From assembly GCA_016722565.1 (NCBI GenBank), contig JADKIU010000007.1:303679-367678 (forward strand): a DNA stretch of 64,000 nucleotides, written 5' to 3'. The notes below the pieces were generated by a model. That model made no database searches, was not told where the DNA came from, and worked only from the letters and a program-made list of their open reading frames with translations. The stretch is from Bacteroidota bacterium. Its GTDB lineage: Bacteria; Bacteroidota; Bacteroidia; 2-12-FULL-35-15. This document shows positions 11,733-64,000 of the stretch, in pieces (the stretch's first letter is position 1; each line of letters opens with the position of its first letter). A program made the position numbers and the translations under genes.

Positions 11733-12320
11733 ATGTTTTCCGGAATTATAGAAGTACTTGGGGAAGTTGTTGGCATTCAAAAAGAGCAAAGCAATTTACA
11801 CCTTACCGTAAAATCACTGTTCACACACGAACTCAAGATTGATCAAAGTGTTGCACACAATGGCGTTTGTTTGACCGTTGTTGGCATCCAAAACGACACC
11901 TACACCGTTACTGCAATTGACGAAACCATCAAAAAAACAAACATCGGTTTACTCAACAAAGGAGATGTAATCAACTTGGAACGTTGTTTAAAAGTAGGCG
12001 ACCGACTGGATGGACATATCGTTCAAGGACACGTAGATCAACGTGCCGTTTGCACCAAAATGGAAGAAACTGATGGTAGCTGGACGTTCACATTTGAATA
12101 CGATGCCACAAAAGGCAATGTAACCGTTGAAAAAGGATCTGTTTGTGTGAATGGTGTGAGTTTGACTGTGGTTAATTCAAAAGACAATTCCTTTTCCGTT
12201 TGTATCATTCCATATACGTTTGAACATACCAATTTCAAAACAATCACCCCCGGTGCCATTGTCAACATTGAGTTTGACATTGTAGGAAAGTACATCGCCA
12301 AAATGTTACCGAAAGCTTAA
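11733..12320 (+). CDS. ribE: riboflavin synthase alpha subunit
   Basis: Starts MFSGIIEVLGEV. It has the duplicated lumazine-binding halves (GVCLTVVGI / GVSLTVVNS). The ATG at 11733 lies 1 nt after the TAA of the upstream gene. Confidence 0.85.
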   Translation: MFSGIIEVLGEVVGIQKEQSNLHLTVKSLFTHELKIDQSVAHNGVCLTVVGIQNDTYTVTAIDETIKKTNIGLLNKGDVINLERCLKVGDRLDGHIVQGHVDQRAVCTKMEETDGSWTFTFEYDATKGNVTVEKGSVCVNGVSLTVVNSKDNSFSVCIIPYTFEHTNFKTITPGAIVNIEFDIVGKYIAKMLPKA

Positions 12321-12434: not shown

Positions 12435-14099
12435 ATGAAAAAAACTACTCTTATTAAGTTATTATTTATCGGCTTTGTTCTGCAAGTCTCTTTGGCTTCA
12501 GCTCAAGCAACCTACACCGATATCTACAATATTTTTCAAGCAAATTGCACCACATGTCACGATGCAAGTAGCCCTGCTGGTGGATTAAATTTAATTGCTC
12601 CTTCGGCTACGGTATACACCAGTTTAGTGAATGTGAACCCAAGTAATCCTGCTGCATTGGCAAGAGGCGACAAACGCATCAAACCGGGTGATCCACACAG
12701 AAGCTTTTTGTTACGTAAATGTCAAAATGGTTTGGATCCTGACAATGGATTGGTTTCTGCGGCAGAAGGAAATGTAATGCCGGATGGCGTAGGTGCTACT
12801 CCATTAACAAACAAAGAAATTGAATTAATCCGTCAGTGGATTTATGCCGGTGCTCCTCAAACAGGAGTTGTGGTAGATACTGCGGTTGTGAATCAATATT
12901 ATAACGGGTACGGAATTACAAGCGTTGCTCCTGCACATCCATTGCCAACTGCTCCTGGGTCTTTCCAAGTACACGTTGGGAAAATCTTTTTAGGTGAAAG
13001 TTCTGAAGTAGAATATTTCTTAAAACACAATTTGAATTTACCGGACACATTGGAAGTAAATCGCATTGAATTGTTTTTGTCAACACAATCACATCACTTC
13101 ATCATCCATAAATTTTTACCGGGTGCTGCAGCAAGCTTTACCGATGCATTGCGTATTCAAAATCCATCAACCGGTGCTGGCTCTTCCGATGGCTACAACA
13201 CCATGGTGAGTGCATTCCAAGCATCTCGCAACGATGTATTGCCAATAACAACTGCTTATCAATGGGAAACAAGTACTGTATTGGATTTGAATCACCACTT
13301 CTTTAATTCAAACCCCGATTCAGTTTTAGCTACCGATGTGTATTTTAATGTCTACACACAACCAAAAGGAACAGCTGCTAAAATTATGTACAGCGATATT
13401 ATTACCAACACCAGTATTTTTATTCCGAACAACAGTACCGATGTAACCTTTACAAGAGCAGATTACAATGCAAGTGCTTCAAACATGTGGAACATTTGGT
13501 TGCTTTCGTCACATACACATAAATACGGAGTGGACTTCGATATCTTTTTAAGAAATCCAGGCGGAAGTACCGGCACGCAAGTGTATGAAGGATATTACAA
13601 CAACGACTACACCTTCAATCAAGGTTACTACGATTGGGAACATCCTCCTGTTCGATTATTCGATCCATTGCTGGATGTAAATCCAAGAGATGGCTTGATT
13701 CAACAAGCGAAATTTAACAATGGTGGTCCTGCTTCTGTATTCTTTGGATTAACAACCAACGATGAAATGATGTTGTACTTTGTACAATACACATTAGGAA
13801 CTTCCATTGTAGGAATCAATGAAAATTCCGCGATTGAAAACAAAATCAATTTAAATGCATATCCGAATCCATTCAGCGCAAACACACAAATCTCTTACGA
13901 TTTAAAAGAGAATGCAACTGTGAATGTAGCCGTTTATGATGTATTGGGTAACAAAGTAGAAACACTTGTCAACGAAAATCAAAACAGTGGCAATCATGTA
14001 ATTGATTATGCTGCAAAAAACAAAGCAAAAGGAATTTATCTTGTTGCCGTTACCATTGACGGGCAAGTGTATACCAAACGAATTGTTTTAACTAACTAA
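12435..14099 (+). CDS. T9SS cargo protein with an N-terminal PSCyt1-like (Planctomycete cytochrome C-type) CXXCH module
   Basis: Signal peptide, then NCTTCHDASSPAGGLNL...MPDG...LTNKEIELIRQWIYAGAP, which fits the PSCyt1 (PF07635) pattern. The C-terminus is a type-A CTD (YPNPFSANTQISYDL...GIYLVAVTIDGQVYTKRIVL). Confidence 0.65.
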   Translation: MKKTTLIKLLFIGFVLQVSLASAQATYTDIYNIFQANCTTCHDASSPAGGLNLIAPSATVYTSLVNVNPSNPAALARGDKRIKPGDPHRSFLLRKCQNGLDPDNGLVSAAEGNVMPDGVGATPLTNKEIELIRQWIYAGAPQTGVVVDTAVVNQYYNGYGITSVAPAHPLPTAPGSFQVHVGKIFLGESSEVEYFLKHNLNLPDTLEVNRIELFLSTQSHHFIIHKFLPGAAASFTDALRIQNPSTGAGSSDGYNTMVSAFQASRNDVLPITTAYQWETSTVLDLNHHFFNSNPDSVLATDVYFNVYTQPKGTAAKIMYSDIITNTSIFIPNNSTDVTFTRADYNASASNMWNIWLLSSHTHKYGVDFDIFLRNPGGSTGTQVYEGYYNNDYTFNQGYYDWEHPPVRLFDPLLDVNPRDGLIQQAKFNNGGPASVFFGLTTNDEMMLYFVQYTLGTSIVGINENSAIENKINLNAYPNPFSANTQISYDLKENATVNVAVYDVLGNKVETLVNENQNSGNHVIDYAAKNKAKGIYLVAVTIDGQVYTKRIVLTN

Positions 14100-14120
14100 T
14101 ATCATTCGAATTCATTCATA

Positions 14121-14163
14121 AAAAAATCCCGCTTCGTAAAATTACGAAGCGGGATTTTTTTTA
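14121..14163. terminator. bidirectional Rho-independent terminator between convergent genes
   Basis: Perfect hairpin ATCCCGCTTCGTA-aaat-TACGAAGCGGGAT with an A-run on one side and a T-run on the other. Confidence 0.8.
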
Positions 14164-14172
14164 ATTTATTTT

Positions 14173-15126
14173 TTAAAAAACCTTACTCGCTACTCTTCGT
14201 GTTACTTCCGAAGTTCCCATTGTATAATAGTGTAAACAAGGTGCTCCTGCTTTAATCAATTCTTTTGATTGTTGAATGCACCACTCTATACCTACTTCTT
14301 TAACTTCCGCATCCGTTTTACATTTTTCAATCTCTTCCAACAAGGCTTGCGGCACATCAATCTTAAAAATTTTAGGAAGCACCGTTGCTTGTTTTTTTGT
14401 TGTAATAATTTTTAATCCCGGAATAATCGGAACATTAATATTCTGCTCCTTGCATTTTTTCAAGTATTCAAAATATTGTGAATTATCAAAAAACATTTGA
14501 GTGACAATATACTCCGAACCAGCATCAATCTTTGCTTTCAGATGTTTCATGTCTGAAATCATATTAGGTGCTTCAAAATGTTTTTCGGGATAACCGGCAA
14601 CACCAATACAAAAATTGGTGGGTGCAACATCGGCCAAATCTTCATCAATGTATTTGCCTTTGTTCATGTTCCCGATTTGTTTTACCAAATCAATGGCATA
14701 GGTATGTCCACCCGGCTCCGGAACAAACTCTGGTTCACTTTTAATCGAATCGCCTCGTAAAGCCAATACATTATCAATCCCTAAAAAGTGCAAATCAATC
14801 AATGCATTTTCTGTTTCTTCTTTACTAAAACCACCACAAATAATATGAGGAACAGCATCCACATGATATTTATTCATAATGGCTGCACAAATCCCAACCG
14901 TCCCCGGACGCTTACGAATGCTTACTTTTTCCAAGTAACCACCTTCGCGTTTTTTGTACAAATACTCTTCGCGGTGGTAGGTCACATCTACAAACGAAGG
15001 TTTAAATTCCATCAACGGATCAATTCCGTCAAAAATAGATTGAATGCTTTTTCCTTTTAATGGTGGAAGAATTTCGATGGAGAACAAGGTCGATTGAGCT
15101 TGTTTGATGTGATCAGTTACTTTCAT
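14173..15126 (-). CDS. metF: 5,10-methylenetetrahydrofolate reductase
   Basis: 317 aa. Contains FSIEILPP and has the MetF TIM-barrel layout. Confidence 0.85.
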   Translation of the reverse strand: MKVTDHIKQAQSTLFSIEILPPLKGKSIQSIFDGIDPLMEFKPSFVDVTYHREEYLYKKREGGYLEKVSIRKRPGTVGICAAIMNKYHVDAVPHIICGGFSKEETENALIDLHFLGIDNVLALRGDSIKSEPEFVPEPGGHTYAIDLVKQIGNMNKGKYIDEDLADVAPTNFCIGVAGYPEKHFEAPNMISDMKHLKAKIDAGSEYIVTQMFFDNSQYFEYLKKCKEQNINVPIIPGLKIITTKKQATVLPKIFKIDVPQALLEEIEKCKTDAEVKEVGIEWCIQQSKELIKAGAPCLHYYTMGTSEVTRRVASKVF

Positions 15127-17224: not shown

Positions 17225-17337
17225 TATTTTTTGGAGCAGTTCCAACATTTTTCATAACCAGCTCACACCCGCTTTCCGTTCCAATCTTTTTGTGAAAAAC
17301 AAAAAGGATTTTTACTTCAATCGGGGCTAAAAAGCAT

Positions 17338-18150
17338 TGGGTTGTTTTCCAAAAGTAAACTGATTCGCTGCTATCCCTAAGGCAGATAAGAGCTTCTGTC
17401 ATTTTTCATAGCCCCGATTGCAGAGAAAATCCTCAAGCGATAGCGAAGAGATTGAAACGAAAAGCGGGTGGATGATTAATACGGAGCGAAATAAAAATGC
17501 TCCAAAATATTTTATGTAGTATTAGGGCCTTCCCTTTCAGGGCGGGCTATTCGCTGCAATCTTTTTCGTACCTCAAAAGGATTTACGCTACTATCCCTAA
17601 GGCAGATAAGAGCTCCTGTCATTTTTCACAGCCCCGATTGCAGAGAAAATCCTCAAGCGATAGCGCAGAGATTGAAACGAAAAGCGGGTGAAGGATTAAT
17701 ACGGAGCGAAATAAAAATGCTCCAAAATATTTTATGTATTATTAGGGCCTTCCCTTTCAGGTCGGGCTATTCGCTGCAATCTTTTTCGTACCTCAAAAGG
17801 ATTTTCGCTGCTATCCCTAAGGCGAATCCATCACCTATTAATATTTATAGCCCCGATTGCAGAGAAAATCCTCAAGCGATAGCGCAGAGATTGAAACGAA
17901 AAGCGGGTGGATGATTAATACGGAGCGAAATAAAAATGCTCCAAAATATTTTATGTATTATTAGGGCCTTCCCTTTCAGGTCGGGCTATTCGCTGCAATC
18001 TTTTTCGTACCTCAAAAGGATTTACGCTACTATCCCTAAGGCAGATAAGAGCCTCTGTCATTTTTCATAGCCCCGATTGCAGAGAAAATCCTCAAGCGAT
18101 AGCGCAGAGATTGAAACGAAAAGCGGGTGGATGATTACTCCGGAGAAAAA
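17338..18150. repeat. tandem direct repeat with a roughly 220-bp unit and about 3.7 copies, noncoding
   Basis: The anchor CTATCCCTAA recurs at 17371, 17591, 17811 and 18030. The anchor GCCCCGATTG recurs at 17411, 17631, 17850 and 18070. Copies are more than 95% identical. In copy 3, a segment of about 30 bp at 17823-17848 has been replaced. Confidence 0.9.
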
Positions 18151-19898: not shown

Positions 19899-21203
19899 AT
19901 GAACATTAACAAAAATAACTACGAAGCATTTTTCCTTGATTACCACGAAGGAAATCTTTCACCTCAACAGGTGGCTGACTTGTTATTGTTTGTTGAACAA
20001 CACCCCGAGCTTAGAGAAGAATTTGAAAGTTTTGAGAATGTTACTTTAGACGACTTATCAACTATTTCGTTTGATCAAAAATCTTCTTTGAAAAAAGAAA
20101 TCACACTAGAAAACAGAGAAGAGTACTTCATTCGAAGTATTGAAAACACCCTAACACCTGCTGAAAAAAATTTATTAGACGCATTTATAAAACAACATCC
20201 CCAGTTTTTAAAAGAGCTTGAATTATTTCAAAAAACAAGAGTGCCTGCTGACACAACTATCGTTTTTGAAAACAAAGAAGCATTACAAAAATCCACTGCA
20301 GATGATTTGTTAATTGCCTCCATGGAGGGTCTATTAACCAAGCAAGAAAACATCTTCTTAAATCAACAACTAGCTGTTGATGCAGAAATGCAACACAATT
20401 ACAGTTTGTACAAACAAACAAAATTGGTTGCCGACACCACCATCGTTTTTGAAAACAAAGAAGAATTAAAACGTGAAGAACGAAAAATTATTCCGTTCTA
20501 CTTTTATGTTGCCGCTGCCGCTTCCATTGCCTTGTTAATTGGAATGTTCTTCCTCTACAACAGCACCACACAAGAACAAACCTTTGCGGACAAAACAAAT
20601 GAAACAAAAACTGCTCCTGTTGAAAACAATAATTCAACCGCGGTAATAAAAAACATTCAGCCAATTGAAAATAATCCATCCATAAAAAATCAGATGGCTG
20701 CAACAACTTCATCGATTATTAAAAACAAACGCAACAACGACAGCATCGCTAAAACACCTGTTAATGTAAACGAACAACCCATTTTACCAATTGCAGTGAA
20801 CATCCCTGAGAACAAGAAAGAAATTGAACAAGAAAAAATATTATTGGCAAACAACGAGCAAACAAACAAACCAAACACTGCAACTGAACCAACAAACAAC
20901 GATGCCATTGCAAGTATCATTGGAAAATCAAAAACTATTGGTGCATCAACAGGTTACCTTTCATTGCGTGAATTAGCAACCGAAAAAATAAAAGAAAAAA
21001 CATTGGATGAAGAAACCCTTGCCATACAAAAGAAAAATGGTCGCGTTAAACGTTTCTCGGGTTGGGACTTCGCACAAATTGTTACGAGAGGTATCAGCAA
21101 AATGACCGGCAGAGATGTGGAAGTAAAACCAACCTACAGTGATGATGGTGATGTAACAGCTTATGCTTTAGGAAATGGCATTCAAATATCGAGAGGAAAA
21201 TAA
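19899..21203 (+). CDS. putative anti-sigma factor, single-pass membrane protein
   Basis: It sits immediately downstream of the ECF sigma gene. It has one transmembrane segment (IIPFYFYVAAAASIALLIGMFFLY) and an internal duplicated ADTTIVFENKE motif. The ATG at 19899 is in frame with track ORF 19890. Confidence 0.5.
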   Translation: MNINKNNYEAFFLDYHEGNLSPQQVADLLLFVEQHPELREEFESFENVTLDDLSTISFDQKSSLKKEITLENREEYFIRSIENTLTPAEKNLLDAFIKQHPQFLKELELFQKTRVPADTTIVFENKEALQKSTADDLLIASMEGLLTKQENIFLNQQLAVDAEMQHNYSLYKQTKLVADTTIVFENKEELKREERKIIPFYFYVAAAASIALLIGMFFLYNSTTQEQTFADKTNETKTAPVENNNSTAVIKNIQPIENNPSIKNQMAATTSSIIKNKRNNDSIAKTPVNVNEQPILPIAVNIPENKKEIEQEKILLANNEQTNKPNTATEPTNNDAIASIIGKSKTIGASTGYLSLRELATEKIKEKTLDEETLAIQKKNGRVKRFSGWDFAQIVTRGISKMTGRDVEVKPTYSDDGDVTAYALGNGIQISRGK

Positions 21204-55805: not shown

Positions 55806-58772
55806 ATGGCCTCATTGATGAAAATAAAACAACTTCTCCTTTATTTTTTCATCTTGCTTACTTTCACCGGTGAAGCACAATCCACGTTTTTTCGCAACTA
55901 CTCCGTTGAAGATGGATTACCGTTCATCAATGTATCCGCTATTTTTCAAGATAGAAAAGGAAATTTATGGAGTAGCGGATATGGCGGATTAAGCAAATTT
56001 GACGGAATTTCCTTTACCAACTTTGCCCCTAAAGACGGATTACTCAATCACTTTGTAACCACCATCTGCGAAGACAATCAAGGAAATCTTTGGGTTGGAA
56101 GTATCAGCGGCATAAATAAATTTGATGGCAAAACATTTACCGGGTTTACAACTAAAAATGGGCTCATCCACAACTCAATTACCTCGTCCTTAAAAGATAA
56201 AGCAGGAAATATCTGGTTTGGAACAGAAAAAGGATTAAGCAAATTAGCAGATGGCTCATTTATTAATTTTTCAAAAAAAGATGGACTCGTTGGTAATTTT
56301 ATTAAATGTTTGTTCCAAGACAAAGAAGGGAAAATTTGGATAGGCACAAATGATGGCATCAGTATTTTTGATGGAAAAACGTTTACCTCCATTACCACCG
56401 CCAATGGTTTGTTATCAAACGAAATTTCAGCAATCACCCAAGACAAACAAAATAATTTTTGGGTTGGTACTTCCAATGGAATTTGCAAAATCAGCAACAA
56501 TACATTTACCACTTATACAATTGAACAAGGACTAACAGACAATAACGTAACTTCACTTTTAGTCGATAATAAAAATACACTTTGGATTGGAACCGGAAAA
56601 GGATTAGTAAAATATACGAATAATCAATTCACAAAATACTCCATTAAAAGAGATCAAAACAGTAATCTGGTAAGCTGCTTATTCGAAGATTTTGAAAACA
56701 ACCTTTGGATAGGGACTTATTCCGGCTTGTTTAAATACCGCGGTAATCCTTTTATTTCATACGGAATTCATGACGGACTCACCAACAATTTTATTTTTGG
56801 TATCACGCGTGATTCAAAAAACAATCTCTGGGTAGGATCGCAAGGTGGCGGACTTTTTAAATTTGACAATGGTGAATTTTTACAATACAATCAGGAAAAC
56901 GGACTGGATGCCAACGGAGTAAATATGATTTATGAAATCAGTCCAGGAATCCTTTGGCTTGCTACTGATGAAGGATTGAGGATATACAATGGAAAAACGT
57001 TTACAAAAGGTAATGATACTTCCTCTGTTTGGTCAAACGTAACCAATGTAATTTACAAAGACTCCAAAAACAACCTCTGGATAGGTGCTACCGGAAAAAT
57101 ATTTAAATACGATGGTACCAACTTCACCTTTTACCCTCTAAAAGGTTTAACTGAAAAATGTAATGTTTGGACATTTGTTGAAGATAAAAAGGGAACACTT
57201 TGGGCAGGAAGTTATTTAGGTGGAATTTTTAAGTTGGACGGCAATACATTTGTTGAATGCACACAACAGCTTGGATTAAAAAATGACTCTTATCTCGCTT
57301 CGTTAATTGACAAAGAAGGGAATTTATATTTCGGGGCGCTCGATGGTCTGTGGATGTTCAATCCTAATGACATGAGTCAGCCAGCAATGAATTTTAGCGA
57401 AAAAGATGGAATGAGTTCCGATTTGGTGTATTCACTCACATTTGGAAAATCAGAAAATGAAATTTGGATAGGAACCAATCAAGGTATTAATAAGCTTGAT
57501 ATTGCCCGTTATAAAGCGACCAAAGAAAAAAACATTATTCCTTTTGGAAAACAAGAAGGATTCTCCGGAGTAGAATGTAATGGTAATGGAACATTTGTAG
57601 ATCGGGATGGAGCCATTTGGTTTGGAACAGTTAATGGTGTAATCAAGTACGATCCGAATGAATATATCCCTAATCCCTTCGAATCAAAAATTAGCATTAC
57701 AAAATATCGTTTATTTTATAAAGACACATTGTTTACCAACAATATGCATTTGCATTATGATGATAACAGCATCACGTTTAACTTTTCCGGAATCTGCTTA
57801 ACCAATCCTTCAAAAGTAAAATACTCGCATATTCTTGAAGGATTTGAAACCAACTGGTCGCCACCCTCAAAAGATCGTTTTACTAACTACTCCAATCTAC
57901 CTCCGGGAACCTATACCTTTAAAGTGATTTCCTCCAACAACGAAGGGGTTTGGAATACTGTCCCCGCTACATTTACATTTACAATTGATCGCCCTTTTTG
58001 GAAAACCTGGATATTTATCATTGCATCCACCTCCTTTTTCATCATCGCGCTTATTCTTTCCATTCGTTTACGCATCAAACGGATTAAATTGCGTGAAAAA
58101 AGAAAAACCGAACTCAATAAAAAAATTGCAAACATCGAATCACAAGCACTGCGTGCACAAATGAATCCACATTTTATTTTTAATACACTCAGCTCCATTC
58201 AGCATTATATTTCCAATAACGATACGGATGCTGCATTAAAATACTTATCGAAATTTGCGAAATTGATGCGTAGAATCATGGACAATTCCAAACAACAAAT
58301 GATCTCTGTTGCTGAAGAAATCAACGCACTGGAATTATACCTCGAATTGGAAACCATGCGTTTTGATAAAAAATTCATACACACAATTACGGTTGATAAA
58401 GAAATTGACTTGACCTACGACCGCATCCCTTCCATGCTCATTCAGCCTTATGTTGAAAATGCGATCATTCACGGATTACTACCAATGCAAGGGAATGGTA
58501 AAATTTTAATTTCCTTGGAAAAACAAAACGACACGATTTTATGTACCATCGAAGACAATGGAATCGGTAGAGAAAAATCGAAAGAATTTAAAAAGAACAG
58601 AGTGCAACAACACAAATCCATGGGAATGAGTATTACTCAGGAGCGGTTGGACATTTTAAATTCCAGCTTGAATAGTAATATCAATGCCGAAATTGTTGAT
58701 TTGTTTGAAAACGGGAAAGCGGCAGGTACAAAAGTGAGATTAATCATCCCGTTGGAAACCAATGAATATTGA
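55806..58772 (+). CDS. sensor histidine kinase with periplasmic two-component-regulator propeller repeats and a LytS/YehU-type His_kinase domain
   Basis: Repeated NLW(I/V)GT..G motifs, a transmembrane segment, QMNPHFIFNTLSSIQHYI (PF06580), and an HATPase_c C-terminus. It starts 2 nt after the thiL stop. Confidence 0.85.
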   Translation: MASLMKIKQLLLYFFILLTFTGEAQSTFFRNYSVEDGLPFINVSAIFQDRKGNLWSSGYGGLSKFDGISFTNFAPKDGLLNHFVTTICEDNQGNLWVGSISGINKFDGKTFTGFTTKNGLIHNSITSSLKDKAGNIWFGTEKGLSKLADGSFINFSKKDGLVGNFIKCLFQDKEGKIWIGTNDGISIFDGKTFTSITTANGLLSNEISAITQDKQNNFWVGTSNGICKISNNTFTTYTIEQGLTDNNVTSLLVDNKNTLWIGTGKGLVKYTNNQFTKYSIKRDQNSNLVSCLFEDFENNLWIGTYSGLFKYRGNPFISYGIHDGLTNNFIFGITRDSKNNLWVGSQGGGLFKFDNGEFLQYNQENGLDANGVNMIYEISPGILWLATDEGLRIYNGKTFTKGNDTSSVWSNVTNVIYKDSKNNLWIGATGKIFKYDGTNFTFYPLKGLTEKCNVWTFVEDKKGTLWAGSYLGGIFKLDGNTFVECTQQLGLKNDSYLASLIDKEGNLYFGALDGLWMFNPNDMSQPAMNFSEKDGMSSDLVYSLTFGKSENEIWIGTNQGINKLDIARYKATKEKNIIPFGKQEGFSGVECNGNGTFVDRDGAIWFGTVNGVIKYDPNEYIPNPFESKISITKYRLFYKDTLFTNNMHLHYDDNSITFNFSGICLTNPSKVKYSHILEGFETNWSPPSKDRFTNYSNLPPGTYTFKVISSNNEGVWNTVPATFTFTIDRPFWKTWIFIIASTSFFIIALILSIRLRIKRIKLREKRKTELNKKIANIESQALRAQMNPHFIFNTLSSIQHYISNNDTDAALKYLSKFAKLMRRIMDNSKQQMISVAEEINALELYLELETMRFDKKFIHTITVDKEIDLTYDRIPSMLIQPYVENAIIHGLLPMQGNGKILISLEKQNDTILCTIEDNGIGREKSKEFKKNRVQQHKSMGMSITQERLDILNSSLNSNINAEIVDLFENGKAAGTKVRLIIPLETNEY

Positions 58773-58807: not shown

Positions 58808-59557
58808 ATGATAAAAGCAATAATAGTAGATGATGAATTAGGCGCACGCGAATCATTATCAAAGATGTTAGAAAAAAACTGCAAACAAATTGAAGTGGTT
58901 GCAAAGGTGGATTCGATGCTAAGTGCATTTGAAGCAATTACTAACAAGGAACCTGATTTGGTATTTTTAGACATCGAAATGCCGAACGGGAATGCGTTTG
59001 ATTTACTCGAAAAATTTAAAAAAATCAACTTTAACATCATCTTTACCACAGCTTATGATCATTATGCTATCAAAGCGATTAAATTTAGCGCCATTGATTA
59101 CATTCTAAAACCAATTGACCCCGAAGAGCTTGTAAATGCCGTAAGACGATTTGAAGGCCAACACGGGCAAAAAGAGTCGCTCGATAAACAATTCAAAACA
59201 CTCCTTTCCAACGTAAAGCCTGAAAATAAACTCAAAAAAGTAGGTATTCCTGACGGAGACGGACTTATTTTCATTAACCTTTCAGATATCATTCGCTGTG
59301 ATTCAGACGGCAATTACACCTTTTTTATTCTTACCAATGGCAAAAAAATCATCGCCTCCCGCACCCTAGGGGAATACGAACAAATGTTTGCCGATGACAA
59401 TTTCTTCCGCATCCACCGCTCCCACTTAATCAATCTCGAGCACGTAAAAAAGTACATAAAAGGAGAAGGCGGATACGTTGTAATGTCCGACAATTCACAG
59501 GTTGAGGTCTCCAGACGTAACAAAACCGATTTCCTCGAAAAACTATCCCATTTATAG
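58808..59557 (+). CDS. LytTR-family response regulator
   Basis: The receiver domain has IIVDDE...DLVFLDIEMP. The C-terminal LytTR domain ends ...FFRIHRSHLINLEHV. The ATG at 58808 is in frame with track ORF 58769. Confidence 0.85.
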   Translation: MIKAIIVDDELGARESLSKMLEKNCKQIEVVAKVDSMLSAFEAITNKEPDLVFLDIEMPNGNAFDLLEKFKKINFNIIFTTAYDHYAIKAIKFSAIDYILKPIDPEELVNAVRRFEGQHGQKESLDKQFKTLLSNVKPENKLKKVGIPDGDGLIFINLSDIIRCDSDGNYTFFILTNGKKIIASRTLGEYEQMFADDNFFRIHRSHLINLEHVKKYIKGEGGYVVMSDNSQVEVSRRNKTDFLEKLSHL

Positions 59558-59715
59558 TAAAACCACTTACATTCTAATTCCTACCATTAAATAAGTGAAC
59601 CCGCCATTTACTCATTATGGGTATACTTATGCCTTTTTGTGTCGTAATATTGGTCAGAAGTTCATTCAAATAATGATTACATAACAAGAGCAGGTGTTGG
59701 GAGGTTTGCAACAAA

Positions 59716-59795
59716 ATTAATTGGCACATGGGGATGTTGTTTATATTAATTGGCAAACCGACCACACCTTAACTCAAAAAGAAAACAAATCCGAA
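59716..59795 (+). promoter_or_regulatory. conserved upstream element, copy A (core ACATGGGGATGTTGTT at 59726-59741, flanked by the direct repeat ATTAATTGGCA)
   Basis: It shares an exact 16-mer and extended downstream similarity with 62066-62150. In both copies the core lies about 178 nt upstream of a plus-strand ATG. Confidence 0.3.
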
Positions 59796-59858
59796 AACTT
59801 CCTTCCAAGAAGTTGAAAGGAATAAGATATAAAATAAGAAACTTAAAACTTTAATACG

Positions 59859-60029
59859 ATGGCAACAGTTATACTCGATTTTAACAATTTAAATTCAAAA
59901 GCCATGAACAGAAAAACATCAATCCGCCACGGACACAATTACCACCAAGAGGGTATCGGAACCGTAACCATTTTGTTAGCGATTGCTACAGTATCTATCA
60001 TTTTCTTTAGCATCTACAACGCATTTTAG
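59859..60029 (+). CDS. small predicted membrane peptide, His-rich at the N-terminus. It is missing from the ORF track because it is under 60 aa. An alternative start is 59904.
   Basis: Sequence MATVILDFNNLNSKAMNRKTSIRHGHNYHQEGIGTVTILLAIATVSIIFFSIYNAF. It has a conserved upstream element and is followed by the strong hairpin at 60066-60110. Confidence 0.3.
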   Translation: MATVILDFNNLNSKAMNRKTSIRHGHNYHQEGIGTVTILLAIATVSIIFFSIYNAF

Positions 60030-60065
60030 AATTTCATTTTTGTTTGTTTAGTTTAGTTTAGACCC

Positions 60066-60110
60066 CCGAGAGCGGTACCTTTGAGAGCAGGTGCCGCTCT
60101 CACCTTTTAT
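60066..60110. terminator. putative bidirectional terminator hairpin
   Basis: GAGAGCGGTAC-ctttgagagcag-GTGCCGCTCTC, then ACCTTTTAT. It lies between convergent genes. Confidence 0.5.
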
Positions 60111-60113
60111 ACC

Positions 60114-61664
60114 CTACTTCATTCCGGCAGTTTCTTCTACAATCACTCTAAATGGTACACGTTGCACCTTGCTTTCTGCCCAAGCAATAAAATCAAAATA
60201 CTCAAAGGCAGCCCGCTCAAATGAATCTGATTTTAATTCAATCAATGCCGTTTTTAACTCTTTATAATATTTATTCTGCTCCTCTCGCTTTGTGGTTTTT
60301 AAAATCTTACCAATGAACTCCATAAATACCGTTTCAAATTTATAAACGCGCTTACGAGAGCTTAAATAACGATAAACACTCTTAAAAGCATGCGGAACAA
60401 AATCATCGTGTTTTAACTCTATATGAATAATTAAACTCATAATTTGAGCAAAACAATAGATATTCTCACTCTCCTCAAAATTCGGACTATTCAATAATTT
60501 ATTAATCCATTTTAATGCTTGAGAATATTTTTCAGCACCGAAAAACATAGCAGACATTCCAAAATAAAAATAGGTTTCACGCAACTTTGTAAACTTGCCC
60601 GGATACTTTGACAACTTCTCCTCAATTTTAGGAGCCAATTCAATCCCTTTTTCAAACTCTCCTGTTTGCATATAAATCGACAACTCAATACTCGTTGCAC
60701 TTGAGAATAATTTCACCTCCAAATCCTCATTCTTTCCATTTTCAAATTGAACCAAGGCCAAACGCAATTTCTTTAAACTAGCATACACTTCCTTGTACTT
60801 CTTTAACTGACTCCCCACATAAATTTCATTTGTTAACACCGAAAAATAAATATTTGGCTCCTCTTTAAAAATATCCGGATACGTTTCAATCAGCTGAACA
60901 TTTTTAACTAAGTTTTCATAACTCTTCTTATAATCACCAATACCAAAATAATAGGCGCTATAAATGTGAAAAAACAAGTACCGTGTTTCTGTGGACAAAG
61001 CCTTGTCTTCACCTTTCAATAAGGTATTATCAATAATTTTTTTAAAGCGCAGCAACTCCTCCGAATTTCGAACCTTTCCCTGTGTATTCAAGATGGCAAA
61101 AAAACGACTCTTGATATTCCAGTACTCATTAAAATTGTTGATTTTTTCACTAATCAATTGATCCGCTTCCAGCATTTTTAAAATATCTGCATCGTTCTTT
61201 CCTGAATAATTTTCAGTCTCTACTAATTTCTTTTCCCACAAACTAATCTCTAACAAGGAAGAATGTCGCTCAAAACGGATAGCTACCTTTTTCGCACTCG
61301 ACAACATTTTCGCACATTGCTCATACAGTGTTTTTTTATACAATATTTCTGCGCAATGCAAATCTCTTTTCAATTGAGCATCAATTGAACTTCCAGAATG
61401 AAATGCAGTTAAACTATTCATCACAACATCGTATAACCTGGCCTTGGTAATTGAAAATTTATTGATAAAGGATTCTTTTTTAAATTGTTTTAAAAGAGCT
61501 GCTTCATCATATTCCTTTTGCTTGTCGATTGCTTCGAACAAAATCACATAATTATTCTTTTCACCGATGGTATGGCGGGAAGCATATAAACTAAAATATC
61601 GTTTCTCCGATTTATTGAGTGATTTTATCAGTTTGAACAAATGATCTGAAGCTACGTTTGACAT
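60114..61664 (-). CDS. hypothetical all-alpha (TPR-like) protein, possibly regulatory
   Basis: Track ORF 60114..61709. I take the probable start as MSNVASDHLFKLIK at 61664. About 516 aa. No family recognised. Confidence 0.55.
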   Translation of the reverse strand: MSNVASDHLFKLIKSLNKSEKRYFSLYASRHTIGEKNNYVILFEAIDKQKEYDEAALLKQFKKESFINKFSITKARLYDVVMNSLTAFHSGSSIDAQLKRDLHCAEILYKKTLYEQCAKMLSSAKKVAIRFERHSSLLEISLWEKKLVETENYSGKNDADILKMLEADQLISEKINNFNEYWNIKSRFFAILNTQGKVRNSEELLRFKKIIDNTLLKGEDKALSTETRYLFFHIYSAYYFGIGDYKKSYENLVKNVQLIETYPDIFKEEPNIYFSVLTNEIYVGSQLKKYKEVYASLKKLRLALVQFENGKNEDLEVKLFSSATSIELSIYMQTGEFEKGIELAPKIEEKLSKYPGKFTKLRETYFYFGMSAMFFGAEKYSQALKWINKLLNSPNFEESENIYCFAQIMSLIIHIELKHDDFVPHAFKSVYRYLSSRKRVYKFETVFMEFIGKILKTTKREEQNKYYKELKTALIELKSDSFERAAFEYFDFIAWAESKVQRVPFRVIVEETAGMK

Positions 61665-62065
61665 GTATATTAATAAGATAAATAATTTTGAAACGAATTC
61701 AACAAACAATGTCTATTCACCATTTTTTATATTCCTACCTCCAACCCAAAGAGTAAATATTTGCCTTTATTTTTAATACTTACAAAGATTAAATTCACTA
61801 GACATATATCTAAATTACTTACAATTTATGAGATATCATAGGATATTGATGAATATTTTAAACTAAAAATGAACATTAGACATGTATATATATCAGAAAA
61901 ATCGAAAAAGAGGTTCACGTGTATACTTTTAAAACACAACTATTCAACAATATCAATACATAGAGACACATAACAAAGAATTAGACATATATACTATTAA
62001 CCGAATCCCTAAATTTTACCCCTTGTTTCTACCATAGCTTTGTACCAGTTAAATGCTTTGGCTCG

Positions 62066-62150
62066 GCTTGTTGCATGAAACATGGGGATGTTGTTCGGCA
62101 ACAAGCTAAGCTAGGGCTAACTAAAAAAGACAAAGAAACAACCACTAATG
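62066..62150 (+). promoter_or_regulatory. conserved upstream element, copy B (the core at 62079-62094 sits inside a 9-bp inverted repeat at 62065-62073 and 62097-62105)
   Basis: Same 16-mer as copy A. It is followed by CTAACTAAAAAAGACAAAGAAAC, similar to TTAACTCAAAAAGAAAACAAA in copy A. Confidence 0.3.
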
Positions 62151-62257
62151 ACAAAAAGAGAACCGCTTAATAGTTAAGACTCGAATACAACAACTATAAA
62201 ATTTAAATTCACGTAACACGCCTACAGAATCATCCCTCCATTATAAAATCAAATGCA

Positions 62258-64000
62258 ATGAAAAAATATACGCTTATCATCCTTCTCGCTATTGTGAGCT
62301 TTTCTTTAAAAGCGCAATCTTATGTAACCATCCCCGATTCAGGCTTTGTTTATTGGTTAACAGTAAACATCCCATCGGCCATGGTAGGTAACCAGATGGA
62401 TACAAGTAACGCAGCCATCACAAACTTAACTGCAATGGATGTCTCCTCAAAATGTATTAAAGATTTAAATGGTATTCAATACTTTACTTCTTTGAAAAAT
62501 TTAAATTGTACAAATAATAAAATTGATACTTTATTAAATTTACCTGATTCATTACAATCACTTATCTGTGGAGCAAATTGGTTGACATTTATAATGGAAC
62601 TTCCAGATTCGGTAACCTATTTTGATTGCACCCAAAACCAATTAGACAGCTTACCGCCCTTACCAATAAATTTAGTTTATTTCGATTGTCATAATAATTC
62701 TTTGAGAAGCTTACCTACTTTACCTAATTCGTTACTTTATTTTGATTGCTCAGGTAACCAATTAACAAGCTTACCTAGTTTACCATCATTTTTACCCAAA
62801 TTAAATTGTGCAGAAAATCAACTTACAAACCTTCCATTGCTACCCAATACAATTACATCTATTTATTGTGAAAACAATTATTTAGATAGTTTACCCACAT
62901 TACCTTTGACTTTAGATACTTTAAGTTGTGGTTATAATCAACTAACAAGCCTTCCATCACTACCAAATTCAATAACTGATTTGGAATGTTACTATAATCA
63001 ACTGACAAGTTTACCATCTTTACCATCTTCTTTGATAACCTTAGTTTGTGGAGGCAACTTATTAACTAGTCTTCCAACATTACCAAGCTCACTTGTAACA
63101 TTAAAATGTTACTCAAATCAATTAACAATCTTACCGGCTTTGGCTGGCACACTTTCTTTCTTAGATTGTAGCAGCAACTTAATTACTAATCTACCTGCTT
63201 TAGCTGGCTCGTTAACTTATTTAGATTGTAGTATCAATCAGATTACTAACCTTCCTGCATTAACCGGTTTAATTCAATACATCAATTGTTCAAATAATTT
63301 TTTGACACTTCTACCTACTTTACCAGGATCATTAGCACACCTAAATTGCGCCTATAATTCCTTGATCGATTTACCCGTGCTGCCAAGTGCACTTTCTTTT
63401 TTAGATTGTTCCTATACATCATTAGATAGTCTTCCGGTATTACCAAGCTCGCTTGTCCACCTAGATTGTTCAAACAATTCTCTTACAAATCTTCCTGTCT
63501 CAATAAATTCTGTTAGTGAATTATTCTGTCAAAACAACCTTTTAACTAGTCTTCCAATATTGTCAAACTCAATGTATGCATTAGTATGCAGCAACAATAA
63601 TATTAATTGCTTTGAAGAATTTCCAACAACACTATTTTGGTTTGATATTTCAAATAACCCAATTGCCTGTTTACCTAATTATATCCCTGCTATGGATGCA
63701 GCAATTTTATTGTTCCCATTGTGCATCACCGGTGATTTAATAAACAATCCATTTGGTTGCACAGGAGCTGAAGGTGTTGTAGGCTATACCTACACCGATA
63801 TGAATTCAAATTGTATGAAAGATACATTGGACGGAAATCTTACAAATATCCCAGTACAACTTTTCGATAGCACAGGAACATATTTAGGCCAAACGTATAC
63901 TGCAATAAATGGAGTGTATCACTTTCCCGAATCAATGGGAACTTATGAAGTTCGGGTTGACACAACTGGAATGCCCATTAGCCCGCAATGTTCTAGTCCA
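62258..64000 (+). CDS. leucine-rich-repeat (LRR) secreted protein. This is the N-terminal part; it continues past the window end.
   Basis: Signal peptide MKKYTLIILLAIVSFSLKAQ, then more than 20 tandem 22-aa repeats of the form L.xLxCxxNxLTSLPxLPxS. The frame is open to the last base of the window. Confidence 0.75.
   Translation, partial: MKKYTLIILLAIVSFSLKAQSYVTIPDSGFVYWLTVNIPSAMVGNQMDTSNAAITNLTAMDVSSKCIKDLNGIQYFTSLKNLNCTNNKIDTLLNLPDSLQSLICGANWLTFIMELPDSVTYFDCTQNQLDSLPPLPINLVYFDCHNNSLRSLPTLPNSLLYFDCSGNQLTSLPSLPSFLPKLNCAENQLTNLPLLPNTITSIYCENNYLDSLPTLPLTLDTLSCGYNQLTSLPSLPNSITDLECYYNQLTSLPSLPSSLITLVCGGNLLTSLPTLPSSLVTLKCYSNQLTILPALAGTLSFLDCSSNLITNLPALAGSLTYLDCSINQITNLPALTGLIQYINCSNNFLTLLPTLPGSLAHLNCAYNSLIDLPVLPSALSFLDCSYTSLDSLPVLPSSLVHLDCSNNSLTNLPVSINSVSELFCQNNLLTSLPILSNSMYALVCSNNNINCFEEFPTTLFWFDISNNPIACLPNYIPAMDAAILLFPLCITGDLINNPFGCTGAEGVVGYTYTDMNSNCMKDTLDGNLTNIPVQLFDSTGTYLGQTYTAINGVYHFPESMGTYEVRVDTTGMPISPQCSSP

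Follow-up and report, generated by a model that had tools for sequence, protein, structure and literature searches.

A hairpin with an invariant loop, very probably a structured RNA, precedes the output genes of a LytTR two-component cassette in uncultured Bacteroidia

Post-transcriptional control in Bacteroidota is poorly understood; to our knowledge these bacteria lack Hfq, ProQ and CsrA, and do without Shine-Dalgarno-led initiation and the classical RNA chaperones. In the Csr/Rsm systems the CsrB/RsmZ decoys lie behind UvrY/GacA control, and CsrA targets carry several GGA sites, one of them overlapping the ribosome-binding region. The consensus obtained for CsrA by systematic evolution of ligands by exponential enrichment (SELEX) is RUACARGGAUGU, with ACA and GGA invariant and GGA in the loop (PMC4347634), and a survey of 58 gut Bacteroidetes genomes detected no CsrA (bioRxiv 2021.04.27.441718). 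The operators of LytTR-type response regulators consist of two direct or inverted repeats of 9-11 nucleotides (nt) separated by an 11-13-nt spacer (PMC4847170). We describe here a hairpin with an invariant 16-nt apex that lies in a 64,000-nt stretch of a genome of an uncultured member of the Bacteroidota (GenBank assembly GCA_016722565.1, contig JADKIU010000007.1, positions 303,679 to 367,678 of the forward strand; hereafter the window). It resembles the Csr/Rsm hairpins in being short, in bearing a G-rich motif that has ACA...GGAUGU in common with theirs, and in being situated both in the leaders of a putative regulon and in an RNA whose predicted promoter would be driven by a two-component system; as with the operators of AgrA, ComE, YpdB and YehT/BtsR, it is found close to the gene of a LytTR regulator that would control a small-peptide gene, and probably belongs to the regulon of that regulator.

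The element is an imperfect hairpin of 65-80 nt on the + strand with a 16-mer at its tip, and it occurs twice in the window, ahead of two different genes:

59692 to 59769, + strand: hairpin A, the A-type copy (fold -28.1 kcal/mol, z -2.9)
59726 to 59741, + strand: invariant 16-nt apex of hairpin A, ACAUGGGGAUGUUGUU, with an ACAU/AUGU mini-stem and a GGGG loop
62047 to 62122, + strand: hairpin B, the B-type copy, which begins at the predicted 5' end of transcripts from promoter P1 (fold -36.1 kcal/mol, z -4.4)
62080 to 62095, + strand: invariant 16-nt apex of hairpin B, an exact match to the 16-mer

The evidence for this element is comparative. Loci were gathered from homologs of a 516-residue (aa) protein encoded between the two hairpins, which we call RusR-like, from a genome scan with the 16-mer, and from a metagenome scan with the 19-mer GGCACATGGGGATGTTGTT; all carrier loci belong to uncultured Bacteroidia, and together they yielded at least 41 distinct hairpin copies in about 30 loci. 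The core is invariant across the 41 collected copies except for three single-base variants (ACAUGGGGGUGU, in which the pair is kept as U·G, ACAUAGGGAUGU, and U16A), and its orientation is the same in all of them. The apex ACAUGGGGAUGUUGUU is often extended to GGCACAUGGGGAUGUUGUU; 16-19 bases are invariant. It is identical at both orthologous positions even though the RusR-like proteins are only 63-92% identical and the flanks are unalignable. The suggestion, made in an earlier note on this DNA, that the two copies are one functional element common to the leaders of two different genes is borne out by these data.

The arms of the hairpin behave quite differently from its tip, in that they vary freely provided that they pair. 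Every copy has 16-34 pairs enclosing the core, compared with 11 when the flanks are shuffled. In 39 of the 41 copies the + strand gives the more stable fold; both window copies are among them, their opposite strands folding less well. At paired columns G·U outnumbers A·C by 32 to 6 in the B-type and by 56 to 2 in the A-type alignment. RNAalifold finds 20 pairs in 14 B-type copies, with compensatory changes in 11 of the 20; 95.6% of the cells are paired as opposed to 87.1% in column shuffles, the observed value is reached by none of 500 shuffles, and sliding the partners by 1-3 columns lowers it to 31-48%. Within the A-type copies the apical AUUAAU/AUUAAU, GGCA/UGUU and CAU/AUG pairs are conserved, and the outer stem varies and remains paired, with compensatory changes in one column (CG in nine copies, UA in seven). 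The arm pairs GCUUGUUGC/GCAACAAGC, CGCCUGCUGC/GCAGCAGGCG, CAUUUGCUU/AAGCAAAUG and CACCUGCCGGA/UCCGGCAGGUG are unlike in sequence and yet each is complementary, and a more distant cassette has at the A-type position a wholly different stem with arms CCGGCCGG/CCGGCCGG. A covariance model built from the B-type copies recovers hairpin B with 102.7 bits (E 2.5e-26) and gives the A-type window copy 19.7 bits; run over the window and the fetched loci, it found no element copies beyond those already known. Most copies are followed by an A/U-rich single-stranded tract.

These comparisons establish the existence, strand, structure, conservation and gene context of the element. The covarying arms and the G·U bias point to RNA structure on the sense strand rather than to a site in duplex DNA, and we consider it very probable that the element is a structured RNA. 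Rfam 15 has nothing at the gathering threshold at the element, and a permissive search (E up to 10) returned noise only, with E of 3.7 or more; the hairpin is a previously undescribed RNA motif, although one of a familiar kind, the cis-regulatory leader hairpin.

The 16-mer had come to attention through the earlier note, as an exact repeat in the window. Both copies of ACATGGGGATGTTGTT are present on the + strand, at 59726-59741 (copy A) and at 62080-62095 (copy B); the position given for copy B, 62079-62094, was one base off. The note regarded the repeat as marginally significant by itself, and we find it to be no more than chance would give: sequences simulated from the window with a Markov-1 model contain a mean of 1.75 repeats of at least 16 nt, and 85% of them contain at least one. 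Because such a repeat is expected by chance in 64 kb, the case rests on comparative data, and it is from orthologous and paralogous conservation of the sequences that we take the element to be real, not from the repeat itself. With up to three mismatches the 16-mer has five matches in the window (1.04 expected). The inexact matches at 11756, at the start of a predicted gene, at 14851, and at 20191, in an apparent coding region, are without the family flanks and the long enclosing hairpin, and were rejected as further copies.

The flanking features listed in the note are real, with differing reach. The direct repeat ATTAATTGGCA is present around copy A (59716-59726 and 59745-59755) as a by-product of the palindromic AAUUAAUU stem, and its 3' copy is not kept in relatives; the 9-bp inverted repeat GCTTGTTGC/GCAACAAGC is present at copy B (62066-62074 and 62098-62106). 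The similar A-rich tails are conserved among close relatives, but only among those. The near-equal spacing to the two start codons is exact in this genome, with 178 nt separating each core from its ATG (59904 and 62258), and the note read it as a sign of function; in relatives, the core lies 124-178 nt from the small-peptide ATG and 51-381 nt from the cargo ATG, and because of this variation we regard the equality here as a coincidence of this sequence. The interest of the element had been made to depend on further copies, orthologous conservation and preserved spacing, of which the first two were found and the third was not.

Other sequences came up in the scans. The matches listed in the genome scan are dominated by two unrelated classes. 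One is a highly conserved coding stretch (...GAACATGGGGATGTTGTTGGCCAG...) of one protein, which contains the 16-mer in many phyla (L007-L126, e.g. L014, L017, L024 and L027) and explains most of the non-Bacteroidota matches listed. The other comprises clusters in Bacteroides spp. (L032, L046, L056, L070, L101, L107, L109, L122 and L012) of the near-palindrome AAAACATCCCCATGTT or AACATCCGGATGTT, with 3-5 copies per cluster at an exact 23-bp period, in both orientations and sometimes at contig ends (e.g. L056 3840-3925 and L070 7229-7310); they have 14-16 nt in common with the hairpin loop, are without its arms and stand in another context, and they look like iterons or transposon-end binding sites. 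A viral-contig scan gave no match with the family hairpin context, most matches falling in a few recurring, apparently coding phage sequences. Within the window, the covariance model matches 14098-14180 weakly on both strands (18.6-20.2 bits), at an AT-rich hairpin between convergent open reading frames (ORFs); this hairpin is probably a common bidirectional terminator with no relation to the element. One 0.9-kb intergenic region (17261-18134) holds eight matches to the Flavo-1 RNA (RF01705) over the gathering score, at 43.5-68.1 bits, lying alternately on the - and + strands at a period of about 220 nt; the 16-mer repeat census also places many repeats there.

The combination of free stem sequence and fixed loop suggests that the hairpin is most likely shown to a sequence-specific partner acting in trans: the stems need only pair, and would serve to present ACAUGGGGAUGUUGUU. 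On balance we think it probable that the element is a cis-acting leader RNA whose loop is read by such a partner. This partner could be a protein or an RNA, and would act after transcription, coordinating how all output messages are translated, stabilised, processed or read through. In the transcript from the promoter with the LytTR-type operator, hairpin A would be situated some 35 nt downstream of the 5' end, and hairpin B would begin at the predicted first base transcribed from a consensus sigma-A promoter that has three GACATGTATA boxes ahead of it. Transcription from the predicted promoters, the existence of a trans factor and the direction of its effect are inferred. More tentatively, and as something that we rather doubt, the output mRNAs of the LytTR cassette could all be tagged for an RNA-binding factor that reads the 16-19-nt loop, in a dedicated regulon coupling the small peptide to surface proteins secreted by the type IX secretion system (T9SS).

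The genes concerned form a cassette in the order kinase, LytTR regulator, hairpin A, 41-aa membrane peptide, RusR-like tetratricopeptide repeat (TPR) protein on the opposite strand, hairpin B and T9SS cargo (local tblastn), and this order is stable across the genomes compared:

55806 to 58772, + strand: sensor histidine kinase (Pfam Reg_prop, Y_Y_Y, His_kinase and HATPase_c), syntenic in all family loci
58808 to 59557, + strand: LytTR-type response regulator (Pfam Response_reg and LytTR; best NCBIfam match BtsR, under the family cut-off)
59859 to 60029, + strand: small membrane-peptide gene, with a conserved 41-aa ORF from 59904 (MNRK...) and an in-frame extension from 59859 (MATVILDF...)
60114 to 61664, - strand: 516-aa all-helical TPR protein, a distant relative of BT2802/RusR (NCBIfam BT_2802_fam, AlphaFold)
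62258 to 64000, + strand: gene of a leucine-rich repeat (LRR) surface protein, which runs off the window (Pfam LRR_4 and SdrD_B)

Every A-type hairpin found lies directly downstream of an ortholog (83-100% identical) of the LytTR regulator, which supports the earlier placing of the element in the regulon around the adjacent two-component system. There is one hairpin per output cistron and none ahead of the kinase, regulator or TPR genes, and every copy among the matches listed falls in the one cassette. Carriers of the cassette include GCA_045805205.1 (contig JBJMLR010000010.1) and JGI Ga0558074_0000021. The first cargo gene encodes an LRR protein of about 980 aa in some loci and a 570-aa protein in others, and orthologs, those of the LRR protein among them, carry Por_Secre_tail, the T9SS C-terminal sorting domain. 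Some relatives have further cargo cistrons, each with its own hairpin, which starts 4-15 nt past the preceding stop codon and ends 10-25 nt ahead of the next ATG; no promoter fits into these spacers, and the element appears to act per cistron. Three more distant cassettes depart from this arrangement, with a hairpin in the peptide leader only and none at the cargo gene (L150), or with no hairpin at all (L149 and L151). This distribution suggests that the hairpin was first situated in the peptide leader and reached the cargo genes later.

The 41-aa ORF is present in all family loci, and the peptide has no family match in Pfam or NCBIfam; a homolog search gave close relatives only, all unannotated. 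The stretch ahead of it, MAT..L.FNNLN (window 59859-59903), is conserved at the amino-acid level. Most genomes have it in the frame of the peptide, for a total of 56 aa; in L006, L068, L128 and L129 a one-base shift makes it end as a separate overlapping ORF, out of frame with the intact 41-aa ORF. Possible roles of the stretch are those of a translated upstream ORF and of an alternative start.

The 516-aa protein matches BT_2802_fam (NF058569) over its full length with 195.6 bits, which does not reach the cut-off of 550, so that it is not a curated member. Its AlphaFold model (predicted local distance difference test score, pLDDT, 86) is all helices, with a TPR superhelix and a short N-terminal helical bundle, and a fold search returned generic TPR matches only, including NprR, Rap and MalT domain III, with no nucleic-acid-binding domain recognised. 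It has hundreds of homologs in Bacteroidota metagenome-assembled genomes, nearly all unannotated. In B. thetaiotaomicron the ribose locus has BT2802/RusR as a candidate positive regulator (bioRxiv 10.1101/574913), and by this relationship the RusR-like TPR protein is a candidate transcription activator.

The promoters and DNA operators that we propose for the cassette are these:

59562 to 59590, + strand: candidate LytTR-type operator, direct repeats ACCACTTA-N13-ACCATTAA, directly after the regulator stop codon (pattern search)
59643 to 59652, + strand: CGTAATATTG, -7-like box of the small-peptide promoter P_A, about 52 nt past the repeats (invariant in the A-type upstream alignment)
61660 to 61669, + strand: GACATGTATA box that overlaps the RusR-like start codon
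61879 to 61888, + strand: GACATGTATA box (TTAGACATGTATA invariant in 12 loci)
61915 to 61924, + strand: CACGTGTATA box (conserved YCACATGTATA, 38 nt past the preceding box)
61984 to 61993, + strand: GACATATATA box, which relatives have as TTGACATGTATA; here it precedes the -7 box by about 42 nt
62035 to 62042, + strand: TAGCTTTG, consensus Bacteroidetes -7 box of promoter P1 (TAnnTTTG kept in 12 loci)
62141 to 62169, + strand: further LytTR-type pair of direct repeats, ACCACTAA-N13-ACCGCTTA, past hairpin B and ahead of the LRR start codon (pattern search)
62212 to 62221, + strand: CGTAACACGC, homologous to the P_A box, of promoter P2 (alignment of B1-type leaders; kept in the closest relatives)

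The LytTR-type repeats are pairs of 8-nt direct repeats with a 13-nt spacer (ACCRCTTA-N13-ACCRYTWA), a pattern with two matches in the window against 0.15 expected. The operator at 59562-59590 is conserved in more than 20 loci, and the repeat at 62141-62169 in L004, L086, L145 and L135 and partly in L001. Both have the architecture and nearly the half-sites of the YehT/BtsR site oligo of E. coli, ACCGCTTA-N13-ACCACTCA (PMC4847170). Since such repeats stand ahead of both the P_A and the P2 boxes, the LytTR regulator probably drives the peptide transcript, with hairpin A in it, as well as P2, a probable second LRR promoter that is LytTR-dependent and lies downstream of hairpin B, with a start possibly near 62225. 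The predicted start of the small-peptide transcript is near 59656-59657. At P1, the -7 box of Bacteroidetes sigma-A, TAnnTTTG, spans -12 to -5 (PMC9723704) and ends 5 nt ahead of the first base of hairpin B, which places the predicted start near 62047, at that very base; the n positions of the box vary among the 12 loci (GC, GG, GA, GT and others). The core would thus lie at about +34 to +49 in the B transcript and +70 to +85 in the A transcript. The three GACATGTATA-like boxes upstream of P1 are invariant across the 12 loci in fixed relative positions, with a fourth at the TPR gene start, and the array probably consists of transcription factor binding sites, possibly those of the RusR-like protein, which may bind these boxes or, less likely, the hairpin RNA.

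Several observations weigh against a trans-acting reader of the loop. The hairpin is evidently not essential to the cassette, given L149, L151 and the cargo gene of L150. The cassette proteins show no recognised RNA-binding domain by Pfam, NCBIfam, the AlphaFold model or the fold search, no candidate for the partner was found, and the 64-kb window and the fetched loci contain no CsrA-like gene. We found no conserved sequence complementary to the loop, save a box of 6-7 nt upstream of the first cargo gene. Sixteen invariant bases are many for recognition by a protein, and would be more in keeping with an RNA as the partner. P2 lies past hairpin B in the window and in the closest relatives, such that part of the LRR mRNA may lack the hairpin, and the transcription starts are predictions from promoter consensus. 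The counts from the genome scan are lower bounds, and copies outside the cassette may exist.

The box just mentioned is the basis of the first of two alternatives that survive best, both of them improbable in our judgement:

62231 to 62239, + strand: CATCCCTCC box, whose sequence complements that of the loop GGGGAUG, at -27 relative to the ATG (position search for CATCCC/ATCCCC)

A switch in cis would have the loop GGGGAUG pair with CAUCCC(U) about 27 nt upstream of the cargo start, in a pseudoknot or long-range helix that controls translation initiation and needs no trans factor. CATCCC or ATCCCC, with a background of 7.6e-4 per nt, occurs at -26 to -32 in 11 of 12 first-cargo genes, with ACATCC at the same place in the twelfth (L006); the box keeps this position whatever the distance from hairpin to ATG (72-381 nt), and 7-9 base pairs are possible. 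However, no such box was found in any A-type leader or intercistronic copy examined, although these have the same invariant loop, the energies of loop-to-leader RNA duplexes are no better than those of shuffled leaders (not significant), variant loops occur without compensating change in the box, and pairing would explain only seven of the 16 invariant bases. We regard the C-rich box as at most an add-on for the first cargo gene. As (A)ATCATCCCT(CC) it has a fixed place in all lineages, is unusual for the A/U-rich initiation regions of Bacteroidetes, and resembles an anti-Shine-Dalgarno sequence.

The second alternative, which we rate no higher, supposes that the hairpin is itself a regulator, either an RNA derived from the 5' untranslated region or standing alone, with the loop as its seed, or a Csr/Rsm-like sponge, in which copy A titrates a factor of the cargo leaders with their B copies. 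The location of copy A behind a LytTR-type operator recalls that of CsrB/RsmZ behind UvrY/GacA, ACA-N3-GGAUGU at the hairpin tip resembles the CsrA SELEX consensus RUACARGGAUGU, and the location of P2 downstream of hairpin B would permit a separate short hairpin B RNA. Neither hairpin is followed by a terminator, though, each RNA has a single site rather than many, no complementary target was found, and CsrA is missing both from the 58 gut genomes surveyed and from the window and fetched loci.

It is less probable still that the hairpin is passive, as a stabiliser of the mRNA 5' end, an intercistronic processing or 3'-end protection signal or a weak terminator, its loop being kept as an RNase site or for folding. 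The coincidence of hairpin B with the predicted transcript 5' end, the location of other copies just past stop codons and the A/U-rich single-stranded tract after most copies are all as expected of such a role; a loop of 16 nt held invariant on free stems is not what stabiliser or repetitive extragenic palindromic (REP)-type hairpins show, a U-tract is absent, and the element is confined to one cassette among the matches listed rather than spread over the genome.

Slightly less credible than a passive hairpin is the idea put forward in the earlier note, that the 16-mer is a promoter or operator, i.e. a double-stranded DNA site for the LytTR regulator, the RusR-like protein or another transcription factor. 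Regulator genes are indeed near, and the direct repeat ATTAATTGGCA flanks the core of copy A; its 29-bp period (repeats 18 nt apart) nevertheless departs from the 11-13-nt spacing of LytTR operators, B-type copies lack it, and A-type relatives have not kept it. The 16-mer itself has no repeat form, and the core lies past the predicted starts or in promoter-less spacers, not upstream of a promoter where such operators are situated. Duplex DNA would leave the covarying arms and the sense-strand G·U bias unexplained, and better operator candidates are present elsewhere in the LytTR-type repeats at 59562-59590 and 62141-62169 and in the GACATGTATA boxes. Covariation, strand bias and the promoter-less intercistronic copies effectively exclude both the DNA operator and a chance origin. 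We also rejected a sigma-54 promoter, seen by eye as TGGCAC-N5-TTGC, where the -12 element is missing and TGGCAC is absent from B1-type copies, and an invertible switch, as only 23-35 nt lie between the arms and the orientation of all 41 copies is the same.

A translated leader peptide is a very remote prospect. Each copy has an ORF of 4-14 codons from the loop AUG (AUG GGG AUG UUG UU..., MGMLF...), and both window copies have a 31-codon ORF in another frame (M[A/K]HGDVV...). The 16 nt show no synonymous changes in 41 copies, however, the peptides are unconserved past residue 5 (GNKLS, GSRRG, GGGPG, NSRLG, KANEAEV) and that of L006 stops after four codons, other copies lack a start codon in the M[A/K]HGDVV frame, and the AUG is inside a stable helix. 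That the repeat is functionless chance, as the expectation of one 16-mer repeat per 64 kb might allow, is already refuted by the core at orthologous positions in about 30 loci and by the covarying stems.

A leader RNA read in trans is the reading with which we compare the known systems, and it would matter in several respects. The hairpin is a concrete bait for a new RNA-binding regulator or RNA partner, and its location ahead of the peptide gene and of each secreted-protein cistron offers a concrete model for co-regulation of T9SS cargo, within the limit that the carriers are uncultured. Telling the RNA element apart from the LytTR-type repeats and GACATGTATA boxes, the candidate DNA operators, also provides a testable wiring diagram for an otherwise unannotated cassette.

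Among known elements, the Rfam motifs of Bacteroidetes (Flavo-1, Bacteroid-trp and Bacteroides-1/2) are likewise lineage-restricted structured intergenic elements seen by covariation, but no Rfam 15 model matches the hairpin, and the Flavo-1 matches elsewhere in the window are unrelated to it. Unlike an intrinsic terminator, the hairpin is followed by A-rich tracts and no U-tract, and on the opposite strand a T-run precedes it. REP sequences and intercistronic stabilisers, and the attC sites of integrons, are also imperfect hairpins with variable stems between the cistrons of gene arrays. In REP and attC elements the stem or its base is conserved (the R''/R' boxes of attC), the centre is variable, and attC has an adjacent integrase; here it is the centre that is invariant and the stems that are free, with no integrase and a stable gene order, and we rejected identity with attC or REP because the conservation pattern is the opposite. 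Antitermination leaders (lambda nut/boxB, HK022 put and the LoaP-type leader hairpins) are similar in that an identical small hairpin is located just downstream of two promoters, ahead of long operons, and is repeated within the operon; the element likewise has a leader position downstream of a long-operon promoter. They differ in that no N, Q or NusG-paralog Pfam family is present in any cassette locus, that no boxA-like partner or downstream terminators were identified (terminators were not searched systematically), and that the loop is of other sequence and length.

The resemblance to the Csr/Rsm hairpins has limits of its own. The motif here is ACA-N3-GGAUGU rather than ACA-N1-GGAUGU, with GGA half in the loop and half in the mini-stem; 16-19 bases are invariant as opposed to about five; and there is one hairpin per leader, 51-381 nt ahead of the ATG, with no GGA hairpin at the start codons. 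We consider a CsrA site improbable as the identity of the element, as the window and fetched loci have no such gene and CsrA is reported absent from the Bacteroidetes surveyed, and we regard the likeness as a functional analogy only. If the loop is indeed read by a trans-acting partner, then the cassette would contain a system like Csr/Rsm or N-nut that is made of unrelated parts.

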